DNA from: a virus
Lineage: Duplodnaviria > Caudoviricetes
Length of the DNA: 64,000 bases
IMG/VR virus record: IMGVR_UViG_3300028840_001835
Reading direction: 5' to 3' (one strand)
This document shows, one piece after another, positions 4,147-57,864 of the stretch; position 1 is the first letter of the stretch; each line of letters begins with the position of its first letter. The notes under the pieces are model-generated. The model worked only from the letters and a program-made list of their open reading frames with translations. It ran no database searches and was not told where the DNA came from. A program made the translations under genes and the position numbers.

Positions 4147-4764
4147 TTATCTCAATTTGTCAAACATTCCGATGTTACCTTTACAGTATTCCTTCAACTG
4201 TTTCAACCAGGCGTCTGACTTGATCTTGAACATCATGGGATAGGAGAACTTCTTAGGCCTCTCGGCACCCTTACACACCACACCTTCAAATGTCATCCCC
4301 TCAAGTGTCGAATCCTTCACGCTGTCAACAAAGTCCTTGGTGACCTCTCCTCTATATAGAAGGCGGGCCTCGAACCCAGAGTCCCCAAATAATTTAAGGA
4401 ACTCCTGCGGTGTCATTAACCCCTGCTTATATACACTAACATCAATCAACTTGACCTCATGTATCTCTTTGGTATGCTGACCAAACATTGAATGTTCGCC
4501 TAAGTATTCAAAGAAACAGATAACCTTCTGATATCTCTGTCGTTTGAATATATGATTGAAGTACGGCTCCGTGTTCTTTATCAGCTGCTTTGCCTCACCA
4601 AGAAGCGGATCATTCTCATCTAGTAATCTCCTCCGGGAACCAAACTTCCAGAATCCTTTTCTATGATCCCACTCCGCACGAACATTAGAACCATCGAGTT
4701 TATCAAACGCATAGACCTTGCCTGAATGATTTTTATAATGTGCTATGGTCATATACTCTTTCAT
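4147..4764 (-). CDS. RNA ligase-like nucleotidyltransferase
   Basis: Motif I DKLDGSN, FFEY, EGVV, FKIK. Confidence 0.75.
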   Translation of the reverse strand: MKEYMTIAHYKNHSGKVYAFDKLDGSNVRAEWDHRKGFWKFGSRRRLLDENDPLLGEAKQLIKNTEPYFNHIFKRQRYQKVICFFEYLGEHSMFGQHTKEIHEVKLIDVSVYKQGLMTPQEFLKLFGDSGFEARLLYRGEVTKDFVDSVKDSTLEGMTFEGVVCKGAERPKKFSYPMMFKIKSDAWLKQLKEYCKGNIGMFDKLR

Positions 4765-6701: not shown

Positions 6702-7313
6702 TTAGAATTTGAAATCCTCTCTTATCTGTTTCACGCAATCATCTATGGTATAAAAACTTTTCACTTGACCGTTATTTGAAATCTGACTTGCAAACAACAG
6801 GGTCGAGTTTGCGTTAGTGTTTTTATCATCCGGAAGTATAAGATATATTGGAATTCGAAATAGGAACGCAAATGTGACCTCTATAATCGTTCCGACCATC
6901 TTTGACTCCTTTGGAACATGAGCCACAATGAAGTCAGACCTTACCACGGCCTCACTGTCTCCCCAGTATTGTATCTTCTCAGCATAGTTACCGTCCACGT
7001 ATTTTCTCATCCTGAGATTTCCAAGGAGCTGAATTAGATCCGTGTTCTGTGAGATGGTACCGAACCAAATTCTCCACATCTCATTGAAAAAGATATCCCA
7101 CTGTCCAGCTCGTTTAAGATTCTTTATTCTCTCAATCTGCTCAGTGACCTCCAGACCTCCTTTTTCAGATTCCTGTACAACAGGATTGTATATCATGAGG
7201 TCTGGGTGTTTTAGTTTCTCAGTTATCTCATCTCGCCATCCAGTCATGTCCTCGGTTGTGGAGAACTCCATCGATCCTGCAAGATATGTGGTATACTTGA
7301 ATCTCTTTTTCAT
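6702..7313 (-). CDS. nucleoside 2-deoxyribosyltransferase-like protein
   Basis: YLAGSM...WR...YNP...D...V.RSDFIVA...GTIIEV.FA....P. Confidence 0.8.
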   Translation of the reverse strand: MKKRFKYTTYLAGSMEFSTTEDMTGWRDEITEKLKHPDLMIYNPVVQESEKGGLEVTEQIERIKNLKRAGQWDIFFNEMWRIWFGTISQNTDLIQLLGNLRMRKYVDGNYAEKIQYWGDSEAVVRSDFIVAHVPKESKMVGTIIEVTFAFLFRIPIYLILPDDKNTNANSTLLFASQISNNGQVKSFYTIDDCVKQIREDFKF

Positions 7314-7765: not shown

Positions 7766-8212
7766 TTAAAATTCGATCTTTGGTTTGTCCTCTTCCTTGA
7801 AGTCCTTTAAGCACTTGCCACTATTCACCACCTTCCCTATTGCTGTCTTTGTCCGATACATGAATCGCATCATACGGAGCAAGATGATGTACATAGAAAC
7901 TAACAAGACCCCTGGCCATGCGCCCATCATGACTATTGCCCCCACGCTATATGCAAGAAATACAAACTCCATGTCAACTGTCTGACAGAAATTCGGTCTC
8001 TGGAACTCCTCCAATGTTGCTATCATATTCGGAGTGAACACCTTCTGAAAGAACTTGTGAAATGGATATATCACCGTTGGTCTCTTGTATGGCTTGTCCT
8101 TGATGAAGGACAGATTCCATGCCACGAATAGAGAAAGAAGGATAAAGATCACAACGGCCACCAACGGAGCGGCGCATAATGCACCTATCGTGTAATACAA
8201 TGCTTCAGTCAT
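7766..8212 (-). CDS. membrane protein, KPK(I/L) family paralog 1
   Basis: 2-3 TM; C-terminal LRMMRF.YR.K.AIGK.V..GKCL.D..E.DKPKIEF. Confidence 0.8.
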   Translation of the reverse strand: MTEALYYTIGALCAAPLVAVVIFILLSLFVAWNLSFIKDKPYKRPTVIYPFHKFFQKVFTPNMIATLEEFQRPNFCQTVDMEFVFLAYSVGAIVMMGAWPGVLLVSMYIILLRMMRFMYRTKTAIGKVVNSGKCLKDFKEEDKPKIEF

Positions 8213-8226
8213 ACCTTTCCTTTCAT

Positions 8227-8652
8227 TTAGAAATTAAGTTTAGGTTTGTCCGCCTCGGTGTATTCAGCAAGGCACTTCTTACCATTGACCAGCTTCATCA
8301 GACCTTTCTTCAAGCGGAAGGAGAACCTGAGCATTCTGAGCATTGTGTAATACACACATCCTATTCCTGTCACGGGCCAGAACAATCCTCCAAAGATCGA
8401 TGGCATCAGAATCATGGCGCTGAAGTTACCGTAATCATTATCCTCGAACAGCTCATATTTGATCTCACTGTCGCCGAACGACTTCGCCAGGCTGTTGTAC
8501 ATGGCCACTATGATCTTGGGCCACCTGAACCTTCTCTCGTCAATGTAAGTCATGTTCCATTCAACAAACAGAAGCAGTAATGATAATAACCAGAGTGCCA
8601 CCCCTGGGGCGGCGCAGATGGCAGCGATGATAAAATAGAATCCAAGAGTCAT
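8227..8652 (-). CDS. membrane protein, KPK(I/L) family paralog 2
   Basis: Same C-terminal motif (KKCLAEYTEADKPKLNF). Confidence 0.8.
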   Translation of the reverse strand: MTLGFYFIIAAICAAPGVALWLLSLLLLFVEWNMTYIDERRFRWPKIIVAMYNSLAKSFGDSEIKYELFEDNDYGNFSAMILMPSIFGGLFWPVTGIGCVYYTMLRMLRFSFRLKKGLMKLVNGKKCLAEYTEADKPKLNF

Positions 8653-8669
8653 CCTTCACCACCTTTCAA

Positions 8670-9104
8670 TTAAAGTTCAATCTTGGGCTTGTCCGCGTCC
8701 TCATAGTCCTTCAGACACTTCTTACCGCTAACCAGCTTACCGATGGCACTTTTGATCCTATATGCGAATCTGAGAGTTCTCATCATGCCGTATATTAGAC
8801 CGCCGATAATAAATATGGGCCATATCAACATCACTAAAAAACCAAGTGTAATATATAACATTCCCATCAATCCAACAAGTACATCATCATTGTCAAGGTC
8901 TGCTGCATTCATTTCAACGTCGGGTTGAAATACGTTATAAAAAAATACGGCAAGGTTGACTACAAACCTGGGGTATTTAATCTCTGTTTCTACTATATAG
9001 GACTTGATGAAAGTCCATATTGTTCCAACAAACATCAGGAGACCTAATGACATTATCATGCCTCCAAGTATAAGACCTATTATTCCGTACAAATCCATTT
9101 TCAA
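8670..9104 (-). CDS. membrane protein, KPK(I/L) family paralog 3
   Basis: Same C-terminal motif (KKCLKDYEDADKPKIEL). Confidence 0.8.
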   Translation of the reverse strand: MKMDLYGIIGLILGGMIMSLGLLMFVGTIWTFIKSYIVETEIKYPRFVVNLAVFFYNVFQPDVEMNAADLDNDDVLVGLMGMLYITLGFLVMLIWPIFIIGGLIYGMMRTLRFAYRIKSAIGKLVSGKKCLKDYEDADKPKIEL

Positions 9105-9244: not shown

Positions 9245-10141
9245 CTATCGAATTTTTAGTATTTGGTAACTGAAGTCCTTAACGCCTATGCGTAAACCTT
9301 TCACTTGAAAAATTATATCATTGTAATCCATATCGCTTGTCTCTGGATTGGAGTCCTCCTCAAATCCAAACTCACAGATCGAGTTTGTTGATAGTCCAGC
9401 AACACTAAACGGGCCGCCTGTGTATTTCATCCACCAGCTTGCTGGGTTACCATTCGATGGATGCTCATCCATTCCATCCTCGCACATTTCCGGATCCTTG
9501 ACTTTGTATGTGAAATGTATCGGCTTGTTTTTCGGAATGTCAAAAATACGACTAAGATTCACCTCTGCGCCAGGCTCCACTTCACTTGAAAAGATTCTAT
9601 AAAATCCTATCTTTCCAGATTCGCAATCCTTTAAACATTCGACATAAAAACATCTCTCTGGGTCATCCTCCTTACATTCGTTTCCGCACGTAACCTCATC
9701 ATCATAAGCATATACACATTCCTCGACTGGTTCAAAATCTCTCCATAATTCTGGGTCTAACCAAGGTCCATATATTGCTGGAGGTTCTGGTTCCTCAAAA
9801 GAACATCCGTCCTTCGCAAATATATTGAGTCCCTCCGACGATGCCTTGTCCCAGTAATTATCACAACCCATTCTGCAGTACATCTTATCTTCATTTGAGA
9901 GCTCAGTTCTTCTCTCACAATCGAGGCACATTAGATATAGATCGCCTTGCCACTTTGCCGTCTTATTCTGAAGCCAGACGACCACACTGTCATCGGTCTC
10001 CCTTATGAACTCTGCCCCCTTATATAACTTCTGTGCAGTCCAGAGTCCCTTGTCCTTATCTTCTGGTTGAAACAATCTTGGTTCTTCTGTTGTTCCTATA
10101 CATAGAATGAAGGCAAGTATTAGAAATATTTTCTTAATCAT
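9245..10141 (-). CDS. secreted Cys-rich protein with DUF4114-like C-terminus
   Basis: True start MIKKIFLILAFILCIG (signal peptide); EFGFEED...DMDYNDIIFQV; the ORF-track N-extension overlaps tRNAs. Confidence 0.7.
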   Translation of the reverse strand: MIKKIFLILAFILCIGTTEEPRLFQPEDKDKGLWTAQKLYKGAEFIRETDDSVVVWLQNKTAKWQGDLYLMCLDCERRTELSNEDKMYCRMGCDNYWDKASSEGLNIFAKDGCSFEEPEPPAIYGPWLDPELWRDFEPVEECVYAYDDEVTCGNECKEDDPERCFYVECLKDCESGKIGFYRIFSSEVEPGAEVNLSRIFDIPKNKPIHFTYKVKDPEMCEDGMDEHPSNGNPASWWMKYTGGPFSVAGLSTNSICEFGFEEDSNPETSDMDYNDIIFQVKGLRIGVKDFSYQILKIR

Positions 10142-10152
10142 ATTGATTCTCC

Positions 10153-10227
10153 TGGCAGGTCCGCCCGGACTTGAACCGGAACTAACAGCTTCAAAGGCTG
10201 GTGTGCTGCCAATTACACCACAGACCT
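10153..10227 (-). tRNA. tRNA-Gln(UUG)
   Basis: Loop CT-TTG-AA, G73, CCA. Confidence 0.92.
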
Positions 10228-10237
10228 TCGTATGTAT

Positions 10238-10311
10238 TGGCTGGGGTAAAAGGAATCGAACCTCTATCTCTGCGTTCAGAGCGCAGTGCGCTACCATTGC
10301 ACCATACCCCA
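10238..10311 (-). tRNA. tRNA-Gln(CUG)
   Basis: U1-A72, loop CT-CTG-AA, CCA. Confidence 0.92.
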
Positions 10312-10318
10312 ATATATC

Positions 10319-10401: not shown

Positions 10402-10813
10402 TGGTGGAGATGGCGGGAGTCGAACCCGCGTCCAAGAATCCTTCCTTATACACTTCTCCATGCTGAGTCCCCAGAACTTAATCGGTCGGACACCCCTGTG
10501 GACACAAATGCCCTGACCTATTCCTTGATATCCTCTACCACCTGTGTCTAAGGAAACCCTTCAGATGGTGTATCCTCCTTTATAACACCACTCCCCGGGC
10601 GGAGATAACTCCGGGGTAGGCGCCTATGCCCTCAAGCGTAGGTAGGGACTTGTGCCAGCCCGGTGAGAGCAGCGAACTGCATCACGAACTGAAGTCCTGT
10701 ATGATCTACGGTGTTGCCGTCTATCGTGTCTCTGGTTTTTTAAGAGGCCACCAGCACCTCTGCATGCTATGTATAGTTCTGCACCCCTGTCGAAGCCAGT
10801 TGTAAGCATCCCC
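10402..10813 (-). ncRNA. ssrA: tmRNA; tag ORF 10718..10632 = GNTVDHTGLQFVMQFAALTGLAQVPTYA
   Basis: GGGGATG/CATCTCC-ACCA with G3:U70; 5' TTCGAC; 3' GGACGCGGGTTCGACTCCCGCC; ATAGAC-GGCAAC resume context. Confidence 0.92.
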
Positions 10814-10816
10814 ATA

Positions 10817-11929
10817 TTATTTATAAATCAAAGAAGGAGTTTCCTCAGACCTAAATCGTATCACCTTATATGCCCCCAATTTAGTCTGAATAGCCTCCAC
10901 AAACTCATCCTCACTTCCAAATTCCTTCAATTCACCATTCTCCGTGAATCTCCATTCTCCCTCGACATGATCCAGGCAGGTGATCACCAGCTTGGAGAAA
11001 ACATTCGTCCTTAGACAATCATCGGACTCGATTGCATATCTCAACAGATCAAGATCAAGAACTGTCTTACGAAACTCACCCTGATACTCATGCATCTGGT
11101 TGGTCTCGTTTGGGTTGTCCTTTATATCATGATCTATGTGCTCATTTGTCATCGGGCCATTTCCATGCCGTGTCTGATATGCCCGGGTCACCATGTATAT
11201 ATCACGGCCTTCAAGTATCCTATCTGCGTCCTCGATCATCTTTAGAATATTCTTTGTACCCGTGTTTGATCTCGTCACGTGCGGGAAGAACCCTATATCC
11301 TTGTCGAGCAGCAACCCCTGCGAACCCTCAAAGACCTTCTCTCCGTCTGGCATCTCTGCGTTCATCGTTATCCACATTGGCATTAAATCTTCCAATGTAT
11401 CGACCGCTTTATAAAACTCACCAAGGTCCAGATCCTCGAATCCATAATACTTCTGAATCAGGTTCATCTTAATCTTAAGGACCGATGTATTAAACAGGTC
11501 CTTGAACCGTAGAGAGTAAAAGTTCTCCTCCCTCTCTATAGTCGCACCAAACCCGACCCCACAGGTTCCATGTTCCTTAGTCAATGCGCTGTGTTGATTA
11601 AAATGCCTATCAAAAGGTGTCGTTATAGGGCAGTCGGGGTGTATGGTCATATATGGGTCAGCCCCTTTAGCCTTCAGCACATGAAACTCGGTTATTAATG
11701 CCTCGGGATCGACTGTGCAGAATCTCGACCAGTAAGTGGGAATCCCACTCAATGTACCAGAACCGAAATTCGAGAACACATGGCGAACACCATCACGCAC
11801 GACGGTATGCCCTGCCTGGCTCCCTCCCGAGAACCTTACAACAACTGGGCTCTGGGCCTCAGAGCAAAGGTAGTCCGTGAGGATACCCTTGCCCGAGTCA
11901 CCAAAACCTAAGTCTATGACAGCCTTCAT
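10817..11929 (-). CDS. divergent adenylosuccinate synthetase-like (PurA-fold) protein
   Basis: GDSGKG, GGSQAGHT, EGSQGLLLD, PHVTRSNT, RAYQTRHGNGP. Confidence 0.88.
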   Translation of the reverse strand: MKAVIDLGFGDSGKGILTDYLCSEAQSPVVVRFSGGSQAGHTVVRDGVRHVFSNFGSGTLSGIPTYWSRFCTVDPEALITEFHVLKAKGADPYMTIHPDCPITTPFDRHFNQHSALTKEHGTCGVGFGATIEREENFYSLRFKDLFNTSVLKIKMNLIQKYYGFEDLDLGEFYKAVDTLEDLMPMWITMNAEMPDGEKVFEGSQGLLLDKDIGFFPHVTRSNTGTKNILKMIEDADRILEGRDIYMVTRAYQTRHGNGPMTNEHIDHDIKDNPNETNQMHEYQGEFRKTVLDLDLLRYAIESDDCLRTNVFSKLVITCLDHVEGEWRFTENGELKEFGSEDEFVEAIQTKLGAYKVIRFRSEETPSLIYK

Positions 11930-12792
11930 AACATGACTTCTTCCGAGGGCTCCTCGGTCGAACTTTCTTTCTTCCCTGTTACTTTCTGCTGTCCGTTTTC
12001 GTTCTTTGTTACTATGTCAGCGATTATGTCTGAAACCTCTGCATGGTGTTTGACCTCAATCAGGTTCTTACCCATGAGCTGTCTCCAACCTGCGACTGTC
12101 GTAGGATCACTTCCTGCACCAGTTTCCGAGATATGGAGATGATATACATTGTATGTCTCCCTCGCCTTGTCAAGAAGCTGTGCCGCCGTGTACTTTTGAT
12201 ACTGGCCAGGACCCATGATCTTCTGAACCGCTGCCTTCGGAACATCCTTCAATGTAGGCTCATCGCCTATCGTGAAGAGGTATCCCTTTCTCTGGCGTTT
12301 CTCCCAGCAGTCGATGGACGTGTGGTATCCGGCAAAGTACCATGCAAGCAGGTAACTCTCACCGTAGTTCCCCCCACCTCCACCTTCCAGGTATATATCG
12401 GTCAGCCATTTGTCCAACAGCTCATCGCTGGACTCAAACTGTCCCACCTGAAGGGGCGAGTCATCGCACTCATGGTCGCCCACGCCAACGAATAACAGCT
12501 GAGGGTCTTTCACGCCCTTCTGAATGATCCCATCCATGATGTTGGGCAACCCGTCCTTCACAAGGTGATGAGGAACGGAACCCATTGACCCTGTCAGGTC
12601 GAGAGCCAACATGATTGCGACTGAGTTTGGGTGCTCCTTGGAGTCCCTAGCCTCCCTTAGCTTGACGCCATGGGGGTTCATCGCATTGTTGATCTGTCTC
12701 TGGCTAAAAGTCTCATGAACAGACTTTGTGTGATAGCCCAGGTCTTCGGCCCGGGCCATCCGTGTCGTTGTGCAATATGATCCACCTCCCAT
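11926..12792 (-). CDS. vWA-domain protein
   Basis: MIDAS DLTGSM; GVGD; EGGGGGN.GESY; FTIGDE. Confidence 0.85.
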   Translation of the reverse strand: MGGGSYCTTTRMARAEDLGYHTKSVHETFSQRQINNAMNPHGVKLREARDSKEHPNSVAIMLALDLTGSMGSVPHHLVKDGLPNIMDGIIQKGVKDPQLLFVGVGDHECDDSPLQVGQFESSDELLDKWLTDIYLEGGGGGNYGESYLLAWYFAGYHTSIDCWEKRQRKGYLFTIGDEPTLKDVPKAAVQKIMGPGQYQKYTAAQLLDKARETYNVYHLHISETGAGSDPTTVAGWRQLMGKNLIEVKHHAEVSDIIADIVTKNENGQQKVTGKKESSTEEPSEEVML

Positions 12793-13166
12793 TATATTGC
12801 CTCCCCGAACAATCTGAGATACTGCGCCTTTGCAATATCAAGTTCGATGGTCTTGTTGCGGATCTTCACACCGAGATCCAGATCGGTCGCCACGAAGGCA
12901 TCTGGATCAAAATCCGCTGCAACCTTAAGATTCATCGCATTGTCGGGCGACAGGTCGAGCATATTCTCACGCTGTCGATTCAGACGTTTGATGGAAACCT
13001 CAAGATCCTCGATCTTGCGTTTGTATATCAACTGAGCATCCTCAGCGATGGCCTGCGCACGATCTTCACGGATCTTTTTGTTGTTCCGTATAAGGCTATC
13101 AAGAAACGCCCCTGTGGGTTTCGCATCCGCGGCGGGTGCTTCTTGAACCTGTGTATCTTCAGCCAT
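12792..13166 (-). CDS. coiled-coil hypothetical protein, first gene of the vWA/PurA-like operon
   Basis: Helical; stop/start overlap with vWA gene. Confidence 0.75.
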   Translation of the reverse strand: MAEDTQVQEAPAADAKPTGAFLDSLIRNNKKIREDRAQAIAEDAQLIYKRKIEDLEVSIKRLNRQRENMLDLSPDNAMNLKVAADFDPDAFVATDLDLGVKIRNKTIELDIAKAQYLRLFGEAI

Positions 13167-13204
13167 TCTATCTCCTTTTGTTAAAAATGAAAATGGTTAA
13201 ATAC

Positions 13205-13232
13205 AATATAGTAAAATATTTTCAATTGTCAA
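13205..13232 (-). promoter_or_regulatory. sigma70-type promoter of the vWA/PurA-like operon
   Basis: TTGACA-N16-TATATT. Confidence 0.7.
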
Positions 13233-13233
13233 C

Positions 13234-13515
13234 CTACTCTCCATGATACTGCCAAAGGACCGCATTACATTTCGCATGGACCGCGCCAATCGTCATTCCT
13301 GTATTATGATCGTGATGTAAATGTATAGGGTTCTTGAAAAAGCCCCTTGGAAACAAAGTTAAAAGAATCGGCAATTCCCTTATCTGTCTATCAGGCTTCC
13401 CGCTAAGTGACGCACCGCAGTGGCAACATATGTTATTCTGACGCCTTACATATTCCTCTCTAACGAGCCTGCGTTTTGAATAATGTAACCTGTCATAATT
13501 AACCGGAAGCTCCAT
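13234..13515 (-). CDS. endonuclease VII-like (His-Me finger) protein
   Basis: Q...CCHC...HLHHDHNTG...GAVHAKCN. Confidence 0.75.
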   Translation of the reverse strand: MELPVNYDRLHYSKRRLVREEYVRRQNNICCHCGASLSGKPDRQIRELPILLTLFPRGFFKNPIHLHHDHNTGMTIGAVHAKCNAVLWQYHGE

Positions 13516-50623: not shown

Positions 50624-51048
50624 ACCTTTTTCTTGAACATATCAAACTTTTTATTAAATATCTTGATCTCATCTTGCCATTTATCATTAAGCTCCTTGCC
50701 CGCCTTAGTAAGATGGATGAGCTCCTTTATACAGTTGATTGGAATGGAATCTGGAAAATGGTTAACCTTTAATTTTGCCAACTCACCAAGATCCTTATCG
50801 TCCTTGAATAACAAGGCCTTCTCCTTCTTAGTGATGACCTCAAGCACATCACCCAATCTGGATGTAAGAAACTTCTTTTTATACATGATGTTTGGCACCT
50901 TATCTATCTTATAACAGACAGCAATCTCCGTCATTGAGCTTGACTCCAACTTTAGATCGGTACCTACCAGATCAATGTACATCCGTTTACAGATGATTGT
51001 ATATTTGGGCATTAGACCTCTCTCTTTGTGCCATGTATCCATTTGCAA
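50620..51048 (-). CDS. divergent EFFG-family paralog
   Basis: ALLF...LAKLKVNHFP..IPI. Confidence 0.55.
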   Translation of the reverse strand: MQMDTWHKERGLMPKYTIICKRMYIDLVGTDLKLESSSMTEIAVCYKIDKVPNIMYKKKFLTSRLGDVLEVITKKEKALLFKDDKDLGELAKLKVNHFPDSIPINCIKELIHLTKAGKELNDKWQDEIKIFNKKFDMFKKKV

Positions 51049-52307
51049 GTCGGAAATCTTAGAGAGACCTTACCCTCTTTGTTTCTTGACTCCTCAAAAT
51101 ATTGAACAGTGATCATCTTACCAACTATCAGTTTTGGATCGTGATAACAATTCACACGCTGTTCAATTGTGAATCCTGAGCCAACACTAACCCTCTCACC
51201 TTTATGCTCTATTATGACATTGGTCATACATTCGGTGATCTCCTGACCCTGACCCTTGATTGTATGCTGAAAAGGTCCTGTCTCAATGTCAAGCACCTTG
51301 TACTCGGCATCATAAAACTTCTTGACCTTAAGAAGATCATTAGACCTCTTGCCCTTGTATCCACTATCCTTTCTGAGCATAAGACCCTCCCATCCTTTCT
51401 TGGCAGACTCATCCTGTAATCTGGCAAAGGACTTCTCTGTGAGTTTTTCCTGTTCAAGAAATGATATGGTCTTGAAACTCTTACCCTTAAAGGCAGACTT
51501 CAATGTCGCAAGTCTGGCACTAAGATTTGTATTGCCTGCCTTGTTATCAAATTCATCTTCAGTGAGAACATCAAATACCTTGAACATTGGGTTCTCGATG
51601 GTGTAATCCTTCTTCCTTATCAGCTTCATGATCGACTGAAAATCCTCATCGCCGTTTTCATCCATTATACAAATCTCTCCGTCAAGGACAAAGTCTCCGC
51701 CAATGCGTAACTTCTGAAGTTCTGGAATCAGGTTATCAAGTGTATAAAAAGGTTTGCCCTTCCTTGAAAAGAACAGGAAGCCGTTACCCTTCTTCATAAC
51801 TATACATCTGCAACCGTCGAGCTTTCGGCTAACCAACCAAGAACCATCAAACGTGACATGCTTGGCTGTCTTTTTATCATATGGATAAGCCAGCGCCACA
51901 TCAAATGTCGGAATGGTATTTGGTAAGGCCTTGTTTATTGTAGATGAAGAAATGCCAACATTAAGATTCCTTCCAAGTATGTTCTCAATAATCTCCTGAG
52001 ACTCCTCATCAAAACCGTTTAGTAAAACCTCGATCTCATTTAAGGCATCATGACCTCTAACAGACCTAGCAGATAGCCTGGATAAAAGATCCTCAACAAC
52101 CTTAAAATCTTTAGGATTGTCTATAGACCTCTTTCCGACCTCTGTGGGTTCTGGAATCTGCTTGGCATAAAAGTTCAGTTGTTTGTTATAAGTCCACTTC
52201 AGAATCTTTACAAGAACCTTATTGGAGGCGTTATCACTAAGGATCTCCTCCTTGTCTAACTTACTGGCCGTATTCTCCAGTTCGTCAAGTATATCAACTA
52301 TTCTCAT
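51012..52307 (-). CDS. lig: ATP-dependent DNA ligase
   Basis: SRKLDGCRC, LDGEI, VFDV, EGLMLR, KVK; OB-fold tail RFP. Confidence 0.95.
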   Translation of the reverse strand: MRIVDILDELENTASKLDKEEILSDNASNKVLVKILKWTYNKQLNFYAKQIPEPTEVGKRSIDNPKDFKVVEDLLSRLSARSVRGHDALNEIEVLLNGFDEESQEIIENILGRNLNVGISSSTINKALPNTIPTFDVALAYPYDKKTAKHVTFDGSWLVSRKLDGCRCIVMKKGNGFLFFSRKGKPFYTLDNLIPELQKLRIGGDFVLDGEICIMDENGDEDFQSIMKLIRKKDYTIENPMFKVFDVLTEDEFDNKAGNTNLSARLATLKSAFKGKSFKTISFLEQEKLTEKSFARLQDESAKKGWEGLMLRKDSGYKGKRSNDLLKVKKFYDAEYKVLDIETGPFQHTIKGQGQEITECMTNVIIEHKGERVSVGSGFTIEQRVNCYHDPKLIVGKMITVQYFEESRNKEGKVSLRFPTCKWIHGTKREV

Positions 52308-52846
52308 GCTTTTCTCCCGCTGAGTGCTGTGGAAAAAGTTTCATCTGTTCCGACCTTGGAGTCTTTTATAACATCGGTCAGGAACTTATCGACAAAATCC
52401 TTGGTGAACCGAAACACACTATCATCCCCGGCCTTATCTATCTTACCTGAGATGTGCAAGGTCTCGATCTTGTTCTTCTGAATGAAGTCGACCATCATCC
52501 TTGGGGAGCTTGGTGACTGGATGGAGATATTAAATATGGGCTTTCTCGCCCTATCGCACATATCTCTCACAAACTGTTCCGGTTTTGTTATGTCATTCTC
52601 AGACCCTATGAACAGTACAGTTCCCTGGGAGTTCTCAATGTTCTGCGCAACGGCGTGCGGAAACTTCTCGGTCTTCATCTCTGTCAATCCAAAGACCTTC
52701 AGCTTGGGCTGATCACCATGCGCAGTTCTATAATCCTTTGGTATAAAACCGCCCGTCGGACAATCCTTCAAAAAAGCCGCCGCCAGAGCTCCCTGCTCTG
52801 CACCTTCCTGTCCACTATTCACAATCTTCTTTAAACAAAGGTTCAT
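52304..52846 (-). CDS. SLOG-family (MoCo-carrier/YpsA-like) protein
   Basis: KIVNSGQEGAEQGAL...TGGFIPK...N...S.GT. Confidence 0.75.
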   Translation of the reverse strand: MNLCLKKIVNSGQEGAEQGALAAAFLKDCPTGGFIPKDYRTAHGDQPKLKVFGLTEMKTEKFPHAVAQNIENSQGTVLFIGSENDITKPEQFVRDMCDRARKPIFNISIQSPSSPRMMVDFIQKNKIETLHISGKIDKAGDDSVFRFTKDFVDKFLTDVIKDSKVGTDETFSTALSGRKA

Positions 52847-56066: not shown

Positions 56067-57211
56067 TAAGTCATCCTATACTTGCTGTAGTATTCCTCGA
56101 TCATTTTCTTGATCTCTGGCTCATGTTTCTTTAGGAAAGGGAACACCTTGAGGAACTCCTTATAGGCGGCCATCTTTATGTTCTTATCCTCGGCCGGGTT
56201 GTTTCTCTCTATTCCCTGAGACCCCTTACTCCATAGTAATCTAATAAAAAGCCAGAAAATCTGCTCGACTTTTTGGACTTTAAATTCTTTCTTCATTATC
56301 TTTAAAGTCTTAGCAAATGACTTCAGGTCTCGCCTCTCTGCTCCCTTTGGCAACCTGCCAAACATGAACTCGAATATCTTTGGTATGTCCGTCACGAACT
56401 TTGCACCCTTTGATGGTATCTCTCTATAGGTAGGCAGCCCGTCGGTCTGAATGATTTTTCCCTTATCATCAAGTACAGGTTCCAGTTTCTTTCTGAAGCC
56501 CCTGTCCACACTGAACCCAAAGAAGGAAACGGTGTCTGGACGTTGGAGGCGTTTACCCTTCTTACCTACTATGGCGACCTCTCCCCGTTGTATAGAGGAT
56601 GTTATGGCCCTCACAAGATACTTGATGAATAGACCTTTAATGCCTTTCTGTATGTCTGTCCATGAGCTGGAGTGACCGAACGTTGCGAACTCTGTTGGCT
56701 CATTGTTTGAGAACTCCGTACCCTCAAAGTCGACCTGTATATACTTTATTATGTCGTGCCATTCTGGTGTAGTCTCAAGTATACCATTAAACTGAAGTCC
56801 CGCGGAGGTGAAGCCGCGCCATTTGAAGTTACCAACCTTCTTACCTTTTAAACCTTCAAGAACACTACGAAGGTCTCCCATATAGGAGACCGGAACCTGG
56901 AGATCCATATCTCCAACTTTCTTCTTAACCTTTGAAAAAGATTTCAATGGTTTGTTAAAGAACAGCCGTGTCGAGCCAGAGAATATCATACCCGAGGAGA
57001 CCAGTTTCTTGAAGTCGGCCCAGAGGGGTTTCTTTGCTTTACGATTGAAGGCATCATTAAAACCCTTAAAGGAGCGCATTAGCTCCTCCTTAAGTTTCTT
57101 GAACTTAGGTTCATCTAACCTATCCATGGGTATCTTCTGAGCCTGCTCACCATCAACTATGACGTTGCCGCCCTCATTTAGTGTCATGTAGAAATCTTTA
57201 AAACTTCTCAT
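56066..57211 (-). CDS. Pol beta-fold nucleotidyltransferase-like protein with CTS-like N-terminus
   Basis: FSGS...GDMD...QVDF; MRSFKDFYMTLNE. Confidence 0.65.
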   Translation of the reverse strand: MRSFKDFYMTLNEGGNVIVDGEQAQKIPMDRLDEPKFKKLKEELMRSFKGFNDAFNRKAKKPLWADFKKLVSSGMIFSGSTRLFFNKPLKSFSKVKKKVGDMDLQVPVSYMGDLRSVLEGLKGKKVGNFKWRGFTSAGLQFNGILETTPEWHDIIKYIQVDFEGTEFSNNEPTEFATFGHSSSWTDIQKGIKGLFIKYLVRAITSSIQRGEVAIVGKKGKRLQRPDTVSFFGFSVDRGFRKKLEPVLDDKGKIIQTDGLPTYREIPSKGAKFVTDIPKIFEFMFGRLPKGAERRDLKSFAKTLKIMKKEFKVQKVEQIFWLFIRLLWSKGSQGIERNNPAEDKNIKMAAYKEFLKVFPFLKKHEPEIKKMIEEYYSKYRMT

Positions 57212-57864
57212 AGCCAGGTCTCTGCCTCCTTAACAACCTTGTTCTTCTTTAGCATGTCTCTCATATATCTCCACATGGATACATCGTAACCAGTCATCTT
57301 GATAAATGTATCCATATCATTATCGACCAGGGCCTTTCTTATCTTGGTGCCAGAGGTCTCGTTTCTCTTGACGACCATCATCTCCCCCATACCGAACTTC
57401 TTATTATTTGGATCTCGGACCCCCTTGTTCTTCTTATTATAGTTGATAAAGACCTTCCCGAACTCCTTCTTCCTGTCGCCCCCAATCAAAAACACCGGTC
57501 TGGTGATCCCTTCATTCAGAAGCTCCGTAAACATGCGCACTGGGATGGTTGCCTTCACATTCAGGAACTTCTCCTTTGTCGCCCTTTTGACTATCTCTCC
57601 CCTCTGCTCTGGTGAGAATATGTTGGCTCCATACTTACCCTTTTTCTCCGTCTTGGTGCGTAACGGGGAGACGACCATCACATTCTTGAATTTCTTCTTT
57701 GCTTCAGTAATTAGCCTTCCGTGGCCATTGGGTCCTGTCCATGGAGAGAACTTACCGAATATGACGGCGGTTGGTTCGGCCTTTTCGTCTATAACGTATC
57801 TTTTTAACGTGACCTGTTTGGTAGGGTCCTTTCTATCTTGAACCTGTATGTCTATGAGTGGCAT
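57208..57864 (-). CDS. HIGH-class (cytidylyltransferase-like) nucleotidyltransferase
   Basis: FGKFSPWTGPNGHGRL...GGDR...SGTKIRKA. Confidence 0.8.
   Translation of the reverse strand: MPLIDIQVQDRKDPTKQVTLKRYVIDEKAEPTAVIFGKFSPWTGPNGHGRLITEAKKKFKNVMVVSPLRTKTEKKGKYGANIFSPEQRGEIVKRATKEKFLNVKATIPVRMFTELLNEGITRPVFLIGGDRKKEFGKVFINYNKKNKGVRDPNNKKFGMGEMMVVKRNETSGTKIRKALVDNDMDTFIKMTGYDVSMWRYMRDMLKKNKVVKEAETWL

Follow-up and report, generated by a model that had tools for sequence, protein, structure and literature searches.

Adenylosuccinate synthetase, PurA (EC 6.3.4.4; Pfam PF00709; Escherichia coli structures 1ADE and 1CG3), has to our knowledge only one re-tooled phage relative that has been worked out so far, namely PurZ, which led to the discovery of the Z genome. 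PurZ and PurZ0 (Protein Data Bank (PDB) entries 6FM1, 7ODX, and 7VF6) are phage-borne PurA paralogues with a changed specificity and a shortened C-terminal part, and PurZ has Ser in place of the catalytic Asp13 and still uses aspartate. Among 481 phage PF00709 proteins that were surveyed, 147 were PurZ or PurZ0, and about 330 were set aside unexamined as 'other PurA homologs' (PMC12884076, 2026). Here we describe an operon in a stretch of 64,000 nucleotides from a virus of the Caudoviricetes (IMG/VR record IMGVR_UViG_3300028840_001835; the whole stretch is hereafter designated the window), which encodes, in this order, a coiled-coil protein of 124 aa (positions 12792-13166, minus strand), a vWA protein of 288 aa (11926-12792, minus; phrog_2971), and a PurA-like enzyme of 370 aa (10817-11929, minus). 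The PurA-like enzyme shares with PurA the fold, the P-loop, Asp13, Lys16, His41, Gln224, and, in the register adopted here, the guanine-binding Asp, but it is about 60 residues shorter on the C-terminal side, is coupled to the vWA protein, and coexists with true purA in genomes that carry the module. It resembles PurZ as a phage-borne PurA paralogue with a shortened C-terminal part and an apparently changed specificity, but it keeps Asp13 and has lost the aspartate loop, and the carrier sets of the two kinds of phage do not overlap. As described below, this enzyme belongs to a third branch of the superfamily that is encoded together with a vWA protein, and it may be a GTP-dependent ligase for an amine other than aspartate.

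Other parts of the module recall other described systems. TerY-P triads consist of a vWA protein, a protein kinase, and a PP2C phosphatase. The likeness appears to lie in a vWA protein that is cytoplasmic and has its metal site intact, in a kinase-fold partner found in many lineages, and in related vWA proteins with a TerF-C-like insert; the present module, however, has no phosphatase, its kinase-like partner has lost the catalytic Asp and possesses a J domain, and in the window an unrelated coiled-coil protein stands in its place. The gene row nrtR-prs-nadV is known as an NrtR operon of Cytophaga (Rodionov et al. 2008, PMC2330246), and systems centred on an ADP-ribosylglycohydrolase (ARH), with Nudix regulators and vWA 'chaperones', have been described (Iyer et al. 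2022, PMC9503650). In Flavobacteriia, the triad of the present module lies inside such an operon, and in other phyla an NrtR gene is next to the module, but the PurA-like enzyme is mentioned in neither of these two papers. More generally, the PurA-like/vWA module is not described in the closest literature, which deals with jumbo-phage genomics (PMC7824862), viral NAD and ADP-ribose (PMC9503650), NTP-dependent conflict (PMC7159879), R2K ATP-grasp proteins (PMC4431377), and NrtR (PMC2330246).

A third branch beside PurA and PurZ

The PurA-like protein matches the Pfam family Adenylsucc_synt (PF00709) with an E value of 8e-45 over residues 4-323 and PHROG 1211, a mixed PurA/PurZ family. It stays far below the cut-offs of the PurA equivalog models (NF002223, 130.2 bits vs 402; TIGR00184, 119.2 bits vs 395.55) and of the PurZ model (NF038379, 49.3 bits vs 300). 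Its AlphaFold model (pLDDT 88.7) gave the best Foldseek matches with bacterial and eukaryotic PurA (E values of 1e-21 to 1e-17; TM scores of 0.72-0.80 by query for the PurA matches at 1e-21 to 1e-19), and the PurZ0 and PurZ structures were the weakest matches of the superfamily (E values of 1e-14 to 3e-9). A sequence search of the PDB likewise ranked PurA first and PurZ last.

Phylogenetic placement gave the same picture. We built a maximum-likelihood tree of 47 sequences comprising 37 rows of the PurA-like family (the window protein, 15 metagenomic phage proteins, 18 bacterial proteins, and the proteins of the phages Sebata, phiKT1024, and RHph_TM21B), six canonical PurA, and four PurZ proteins. 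The PurA-like family formed one clade with a support of 100/99 and a stem length of 1.18, apart from the clade of PurA and PurZ; long-branch warnings touched the deep joins of the tree and not the monophyly of the family. The PurA-like enzyme is thus neither PurA nor PurZ and represents a third, well-supported branch of the superfamily. At E <= 1e-10, the relatives number more than 4,500. The longer relatives of the PurA-like protein were intein-bearing forms only, and no vWA-PurA fusion was seen. All five bacterial genomes tested encode a canonical PurA scoring 565-615 bits against PF00709 together with a paralogue scoring 140-153 bits. Since each of these module-bearing genomes has its own canonical PurA, the paralogue is no replacement for purA. 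The family is a second and much larger re-tooled PurA branch, with its catalytic centre intact.

The active-site residues were counted in 120 relatives (49-56% identity with the protein of the window) after alignment to E. coli PurA, whose numbering is used here for the family counts. The window protein retains the GDSGKG and AGHT motifs, and its catalytic D11, K14, H41, and Q204 correspond to Asp13, Lys16, His41, and Gln224 of E. coli PurA. Moreover, G12, D13, K16, G17, H41, Q224, and R272 are invariant in all 120 relatives. In the intein-bearing relatives P0271 and P0273, the insertion lies exactly between His41 and Thr42 (AGH/C...HN/T), and the inteins of two vWA relatives (P0278 and P0279) adjoin the metal-site Asp of that protein. 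The positions of these inteins, at the His41 motif and at the metal-site Asp, indicate that the active site is under strong constraint.

In contrast to this conserved centre, the aspartate loop differs from that of PurA throughout the family. The GATTGRRRR of the E. coli enzyme, in which we take Thr300, Thr301, Arg303, and Arg305 to bind aspartate, reads HEYQGEFRK in the window protein. Within the family, Thr300 is replaced by Tyr, Phe, or Trp, Thr301 by Gln in every relative (120/120), and Arg304 by Phe in 107 of the 120, and position 303 is variable; Arg305 is retained, as Arg in 110 and as Lys in the other 10. Changes are also found at the site of the 5'-phosphate of IMP, which in the E. 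coli enzyme is presumably bound by Asn38, Thr129, Thr239, and an Arg143 supplied by the partner subunit of the homodimer. Asn38 is replaced by Gln (120/120) and Thr129 by Cys (114/120), the latter together with Arg131 to Val, so that the GTTGRG of E. coli reads GTCGVG in the window protein. Arg143 becomes Phe, His, or Tyr across the family, and Thr239 is kept; three of the four 5'-phosphate ligands are thus altered, and the Arg143 acting in trans, to which PurA owes its obligate homodimeric state, is missing. Beside the retained Thr239, a new Arg appears at position 240 in place of Ser (118/120). Further replacements in the nucleotide-binding region are those of Val273 by His (120/120) and of Ser270 by Gln (119/120). 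All these changes are common to the whole family and are not peculiar to the phage of the window.

At the guanine site, where Lys331 and Asp333 are presumed to act in E. coli PurA, the TKLD motif reads TCLD, with loss of the Lys. Alignment A1 shows no variation at Thr317 and Cys318 of the motif and a conservation of at least 90% at Asp320; because MAFFT misaligns this stretch relative to E. coli, the register was taken from the order of strand and motif and from the invariance of Thr317-Cys318 instead of from the MAFFT placement. GTP use by the PurA-like enzyme is likely unchanged, because the Asp that determines guanine specificity is retained.

An earlier sequence-only reading of this locus had reported a PurA fold that is not PurZ-like, with GD.GKG and AGHT kept, the aspartate loop replaced, GTT changed to GTC, and KLD changed to CLD. 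Each of these motif readings was reproduced, the loss of the aspartate loop now being family-wide; the distinction from PurZ is borne out by the retained Asp13, the score of 49 bits vs 300 against NF038379, and the separate clade, and a structure model, of the kind that had been suggested as a check, has the PurA fold with its best Foldseek matches to PurA. An altered NTP specificity, as the change of KLD to CLD might suggest, was not supported: the guanine-reading Asp stays, and GTP use is likely unchanged.

The vWA partner, the third gene, and the operon

No Pfam vWA model matches the 288-aa protein by sequence, and its assignment comes from structure. The model (pLDDT 94.2) matched integrin I domains and the A3 domain of vWF in Foldseek with E values of 2e-6 to 1e-4 and a probability of 1.0; the TM score was about 0.5 when taken by query and reached 0.64 when taken by target. 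The metal-ion-dependent adhesion site (MIDAS) is complete (D65-x-T67-x-S69, D106, and D177-E178) and invariant in 66 relatives. The protein begins with the near-invariant Met-Gly described below, has a loop rich in Gly (EGGGGGN), and finishes in a disordered, acidic tail whose last residue is hydrophobic. A search at E <= 0.001 gave 1,578 vWA cluster representatives. In a set of 136 full-length representatives that share no more than 50% identity with one another, 128 start with Met-Gly in the motif MG[GYS][GS][ST][YWF][SND], and 98 end in a hydrophobic residue, usually Leu, past an acidic low-complexity linker of 25-30 residues. The longer vWA relatives comprise intein forms, forms with the TerF-C-like insert, and one fusion described below.

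The association of this protein with the PurA-like enzyme was analyzed in a neighbourhood survey of 80 IMG/VR phage loci and 80 bacterial loci. Of the phage loci, 78 have enough sequence upstream of the PurA-like gene, and every one of these has a vWA homologue there, on the same strand in 77 and often overlapping; in bacteria, this is the case in 74 of 79 loci. These results support the view that the vWA protein is the obligate partner of the PurA-like enzyme, a pairing that had been guessed from the window. In nine phage loci, homing endonucleases of the GIY-YIG/NUMOD type have been inserted between the two genes (e.g. L009:7127-7996). The small open reading frames (ORFs) found between the vWA and PurA-like genes in Sebata and phiKT1024, or upstream in the Rhizobium phage, had nothing obvious in common. 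The vWA-less loci of Raineya, Pontibacter, Bacteroidales, and Pedobacter (L101, L105, L113, and L120) nest in the family tree beside Hymenobacter; in L113, a protein judged by eye to be a fusion of sugar-kinase-like and nucleoside-deoxyribosyltransferase-like parts is encoded directly upstream of the PurA-like gene.

The third gene of the module occurs in two forms. The form of the window, the 124-aa coiled-coil protein, is a helical hairpin with invariant R27, N29, D35, R36, a DLSP motif, and L119, and a homologue is encoded immediately upstream of the vWA protein in 43 of the 80 phage and 48 of the 80 bacterial loci. It could not be assigned to a family: the best Pfam match, Sds3 (E 0.039), falls below the cut-off, and PHROG, NCBIfam, and PADLOC gave no match. 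Its structural look-alikes in the Atlas were generic helical hairpins, including a GrpE-like row with a TM score of 0.48, too weak to use. The other form, present in 26 phage loci and 16 bacterial loci and represented by Sebata gp260, is a protein of about 295 aa that combines the HPD motif of a J domain with a kinase fold lacking the catalytic Asp (HGAITPDN/CHAGLTPES). Homology between the two forms was ruled out by hhalign (probability of 0.6%). In the metagenomic protein P0280 (675 aa), the J-domain pseudokinase and the vWA protein are naturally fused and the MGGSSY motif is internal, and this arrangement argues that the accessory parts form a physical complex. The signature of the module can accordingly be given as an upstream vWA gene, a PurA-like gene with Q38, C129, H273, and Q301, and a third adaptor gene, all of which the window has.

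In the window, the three genes are tightly coupled. The stop codon of the coiled-coil gene and the start codon of the vWA gene share one nucleotide (TAATG), and the stop codon of the latter overlaps the start codon of the PurA-like gene by four (ATGA), as read from the sequence. A sigma-70-like promoter, TTGACA-16 nt-TATATT, which matches the consensus in 11 of 12 positions, is located at 13205-13232 (minus), 39 nt 5' of the coiled-coil start codon, with the ribosome-binding site AGGAGA between them; as a scan of the region found six promoter-like sites vs 4.3 expected, it is a consensus match only. Such a promoter of the host type would be read by the host RNA polymerase, which in a phage of the T4 kind would imply that the operon is expressed early. 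At the other end, the T4 late-promoter consensus box TATAAATA (10817-10826, minus) overlaps the stop codon of the PurA-like gene and precedes the tmRNA gene; it is assigned to the downstream tmRNA gene rather than to the module, whose 3' end it marks. The sequence-only reading had likewise described an operon with its own promoter and coupled genes, and the coordinates proved correct.

The phage, a large and uncultured T4-like virus of marine origin, carries the operon in a region of 33 tRNA genes and one tmRNA gene, with the tmRNA beginning directly past the PurA-like stop codon. The ARAGORN call of this tmRNA (10402-10953) extends about 130 nt into the PurA-like gene, and its 5' end is probably overcalled. 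The adjacency, to which attention had been drawn earlier, is real, but a functional tie did not hold up: 23 of the 80 phage loci and 4 of the 80 bacterial loci have a tRNA or tmRNA gene at a distance of up to about 8 kb from the module, and the linkage was therefore rejected as a functional clue and is probably incidental, both being placed in a phage accessory region.

Genomic context in phages and bacteria

About 230 isolated phages belong to the PurA-like branch, including all cluster C mycobacteriophages, and the isolates with the vWA/PurA-like pair number about 200 among the cluster C mycobacteriophages, 10 among the Rhizobium phages, and six among the Vibrio phages. The bacterial carriers include many Bacteroidota, Competibacteraceae, and cable bacteria. 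The module is open to study in tractable systems, namely Flavobacterium, Chryseobacterium, and Mycobacterium smegmatis with its Bxz1-like phages.

The survey of gene neighbourhoods, an approach that the sequence-only reading had pointed to, revealed, besides the strict vWA pairing and the two forms of the third gene, a bacterial context of NAD and ADP-ribose metabolism. In Flavobacteriia, the genes form a one-directional row, nrtR-prs-cc-vWA-PurAL-NADAR-Macro-DUF4291-Tpt1-Metallophos-ARH-nadV (cc, coiled-coil protein; PurAL, PurA-like enzyme), in which the triad is placed between prs and nadV. The rows of Chryseobacterium, Flavobacterium, and Tenacibaculum open with an NrtR-type Nudix/winged-helix regulator and include prs and nadV (NAMPT), together with a varying set of ADP-ribose enzymes, namely NADAR, Macro, DarG-like macro, microbial PARG, ARH, Tpt1/KptA, Sir2, DUF4291, calcineurin-like phosphoesterase, and 2OG-Fe(II) oxygenase proteins. 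Overall, NrtR is adjacent to the module in 44 of the 80 bacterial loci. Independent lineages with a different third partner bear out the association: in Competibacteraceae and other Pseudomonadota, nrtR adjoins a module of the pseudokinase type in divergent orientation, and in an Acidobacterium both ARH and nrtR adjoin the vWA-PurAL pair.

In 16 Flavobacterium loci (L114-L156; e.g. L136:5623-5643), a perfect 21-bp palindrome, TTTGCGTATAATTAACGCAAA, follows nrtR at a distance of about 45 nt and precedes prs by about 10 nt; it was not seen at any other place in the 1.2 Mb of bacterial sequence examined. We regard it as a candidate NrtR operator, although its carrier species are close relatives. 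In Chryseobacterium, TTTGCGTATTCGTAACGCAAA is found upstream of nrtR.

In phages, the connection with NAD and ADP-ribose metabolism is weaker. The Rhizobium phage RHph_TM21B carries NMN adenylyltransferase/Nudix and phosphoribosyltransferase-like genes 3-5 kb upstream, and the Vibrio phage phiKT1024 a NADAR gene 2 kb upstream. In the phage loci of the pseudokinase type, an R2K-clade ATP-grasp protein (PF18299) is often encoded behind the module, and a DNA ligase and the HAD domain (PF18143) of 'Swiss Army Knife' RNA-repair proteins accompany it (examples of this context are L029:9183-9989, L029:1318-1812, and L024:10671-11765). Beside the phage copy in the window there is no NrtR gene, NrtR-type palindrome, or ADP-ribose hydrolase, and the sigma-70-like promoter stands there instead. 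None of the three proteins matched a defence model of PADLOC-DB 2.0 at E <= 0.01, apart from one chance-level match of the vWA protein (E 0.01).

Proposed reaction and alternatives

From the retained catalytic set and the replaced loops, the following reaction may be proposed. The PurA-like enzyme would use GTP to phosphorylate IMP, or a closely related purine nucleotide, on its 6-oxo group, and an amine other than free L-aspartate would then displace the phosphate, giving an N6-substituted adenine nucleotide or, if the amine were ammonia, AMP. The enzyme would act in a hetero-complex, to which the loss of the trans Arg143 and the new, nearly invariant Arg placed in cis next to Thr239 may be related; the vWA partner would help to hold the phosphate-bearing substrate through its metal ion or would present the amine, with the coiled-coil protein or the J-domain pseudokinase serving as an exchangeable adaptor. 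The module would act while the cell depletes NAD or ADP-ribosylates its targets, and in the small-molecule version, N6-substituted AMP or AMP made from ammonia would feed the adenylate and NAD pool. The role would be tied to NAD breakdown: the bacterial module adjoins NrtR, a repressor that senses ADP-ribose, and lies among NAD-salvage and ADP-ribose-removing enzymes, and the promoter in the phage is of the host (early) type. Our preferred reading is, in short, that of a GTP-dependent ligase joining a 6-oxopurine nucleotide with a non-aspartate amine, working with the vWA protein under NAD/ADP-ribose stress. We hold it tentatively and with somewhat less than even confidence. That a different amine is ligated had already been suggested by the sequence-only reading, and an amine other than aspartate, free or protein-borne, remains the most economical explanation. 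NAD depletion is now central to the conflict between phages and bacteria, and the vWA pairing together with the NrtR, NAD-salvage, and ADP-ribose operons suggests a reaction, not described before, that responds to it.

Several observations weigh against this reading. Arg305 is kept, so some carboxylate binding may survive. Five bacterial members of the family have no upstream vWA gene. Many of the Flavobacteriia loci are closely related and therefore amount to few independent observations. Moreover, NAD genes, although a strong feature of the bacterial loci, are sparse within 8 kb in the 80 metagenomic phage loci (Nudix in six, NAMPT in two, NADAR and Prs in one each), and the NAD context is absent from the immediate surroundings of the operon in the window.

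Among the alternatives, the most serious is that the reaction is directed to a protein: the purine nucleotide would be joined via N6 to the N-terminal Gly of the vWA protein, after removal of Met, or to a Lys of a client protein at the vWA metal site, and would act alongside ADP-ribosylation. The conserved Met-Gly start of the vWA representatives (128/136) is consistent with this possibility, as are the nature of the third partners as protein-interaction parts (the HPD J domain, the pseudokinase, and the coiled coil), the aromatic and hydrophobic turn of the aspartate pocket, and the neighbouring ARH, PARG, Macro, and NADAR proteins, which strip ADP-ribose from macromolecules. Nevertheless, the characterised members of the PurA superfamily all act on small molecules, and the internal position of the MG motif in P0280 means that a free N-terminus is not always present unless there is an internal start, which counts against self-modification. 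We consider the protein-directed reaction unlikely, though worth keeping in mind. A more specific form of it would have IMP activated with GTP and coupled via N6 to the vWA N-terminal Gly or to a client Lys at the metal site as a new 'purinylation' mark, switched on in bacteria as ADP-ribose accumulates and made early in infection by large phages; this fuller proposal is slightly more doubtful still.

The acceptor, too, might differ from that of the preferred ligase reading. In place of IMP, it could be GMP, XMP, or some other lactam or oxo compound from NAD/ADP-ribose metabolism, and the product would then not be an adenine nucleotide. The new polar residues at the nucleotide site (Q38, Q270, H273, and R240), the changes in three of the four 5'-phosphate ligands, and a context of NAD metabolism rather than purine synthesis point in this direction. 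However, D13, H41, Q224, and K16, which handle the 6-oxo group and N1, are invariant, a fact that is hard to explain without a 6-oxopurine, and a different acceptor appears rather improbable.

The PurA-like protein might also be non-catalytic, being a GTP/IMP-sensing switch subunit of a chaperone-like complex of vWA and J-domain proteins for ADP-ribosylated or damaged proteins. The vWA proteins of NrtR-linked ADP-ribosylglycohydrolase systems have been proposed to be peptide-binding chaperones (PMC9503650), and a J domain recruits DnaK. Against such a switch stand the invariance of the full catalytic set across a branch of about 40-50% overall identity, the targeting of the His41 motif by inteins, and the conservation of the changed loops themselves, which indicates a defined substrate; we judge it improbable.

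That the gene is an ordinary auxiliary metabolic gene, encoding a divergent but true adenylosuccinate synthetase that raises the AMP supply for phage replication, would agree with the PF00709 match, the database name of adenylosuccinate synthase, and the retained Arg305. It is very improbable in view of the score of 130 bits vs 402, the loss of the aspartate loop and of Arg143, the separate clade, the real purA kept by the host genomes, and a vWA coupling that has no role in AMP synthesis. Finally, a PurZ-like enzyme making a modified purine such as 2-aminoadenine for phage DNA, as the PHROGs family label of 2-aminooxy adenylosuccinate synthetase would have it, can practically be dismissed, given the catalytic Asp that is Ser in all 147 phage PurZ sequences (PMC12884076), the NF038379 score of 49 bits vs 300, the separate set and clade of the PurZ phages, and the presence of the module in bacterial chromosomes. 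The purine-modification idea of the sequence-only reading, taken as modification of DNA bases, is likewise not supported, the module being present also in bacteria that keep purA, where it lies in NrtR/NAD-salvage/ADP-ribose operons.

Several other features of the window were recorded. The surroundings of the operon contain, besides the tRNA and tmRNA genes, an Endo VII-like ORF, an RNA ligase (4147-4764), and a nucleoside-2-deoxyribosyltransferase-like protein (6702-7313); farther off are an ATP-dependent DNA ligase (51012-52307), a circularly permuted YpsA (cpYpsA) protein of the SLOG type (52304-52846), and a cytidylyltransferase-like protein (57208-57864), which is possibly of the NMN adenylyltransferase type. 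The Endo VII-like ORF, of 93 aa (13234-13515, minus), lies between a tRNA-Ser gene and the operon promoter; it matches the Pfam family Endonuclease VII weakly, with an E value of 0.0045, and phrog_14729 with 6e-35, and may be a small mobile nuclease of the HNH/Endo VII type. A tandem array at 7766-9104 (minus) encodes three paralogous membrane proteins with a length of about 145 aa, which share the C-terminal pattern ...GKKCL(K/A)(D/E)(F/Y)...DKPK(I/L)(E/N)(F/L). The listed ORF of 355 aa at 9245-10312 (minus) starts within the tRNA-Gln genes (10153-10311); translation probably begins at the internal MIKKIFLILAFILCIG, which resembles the signal sequence of a lipoprotein and leads into a Cys-rich protein.

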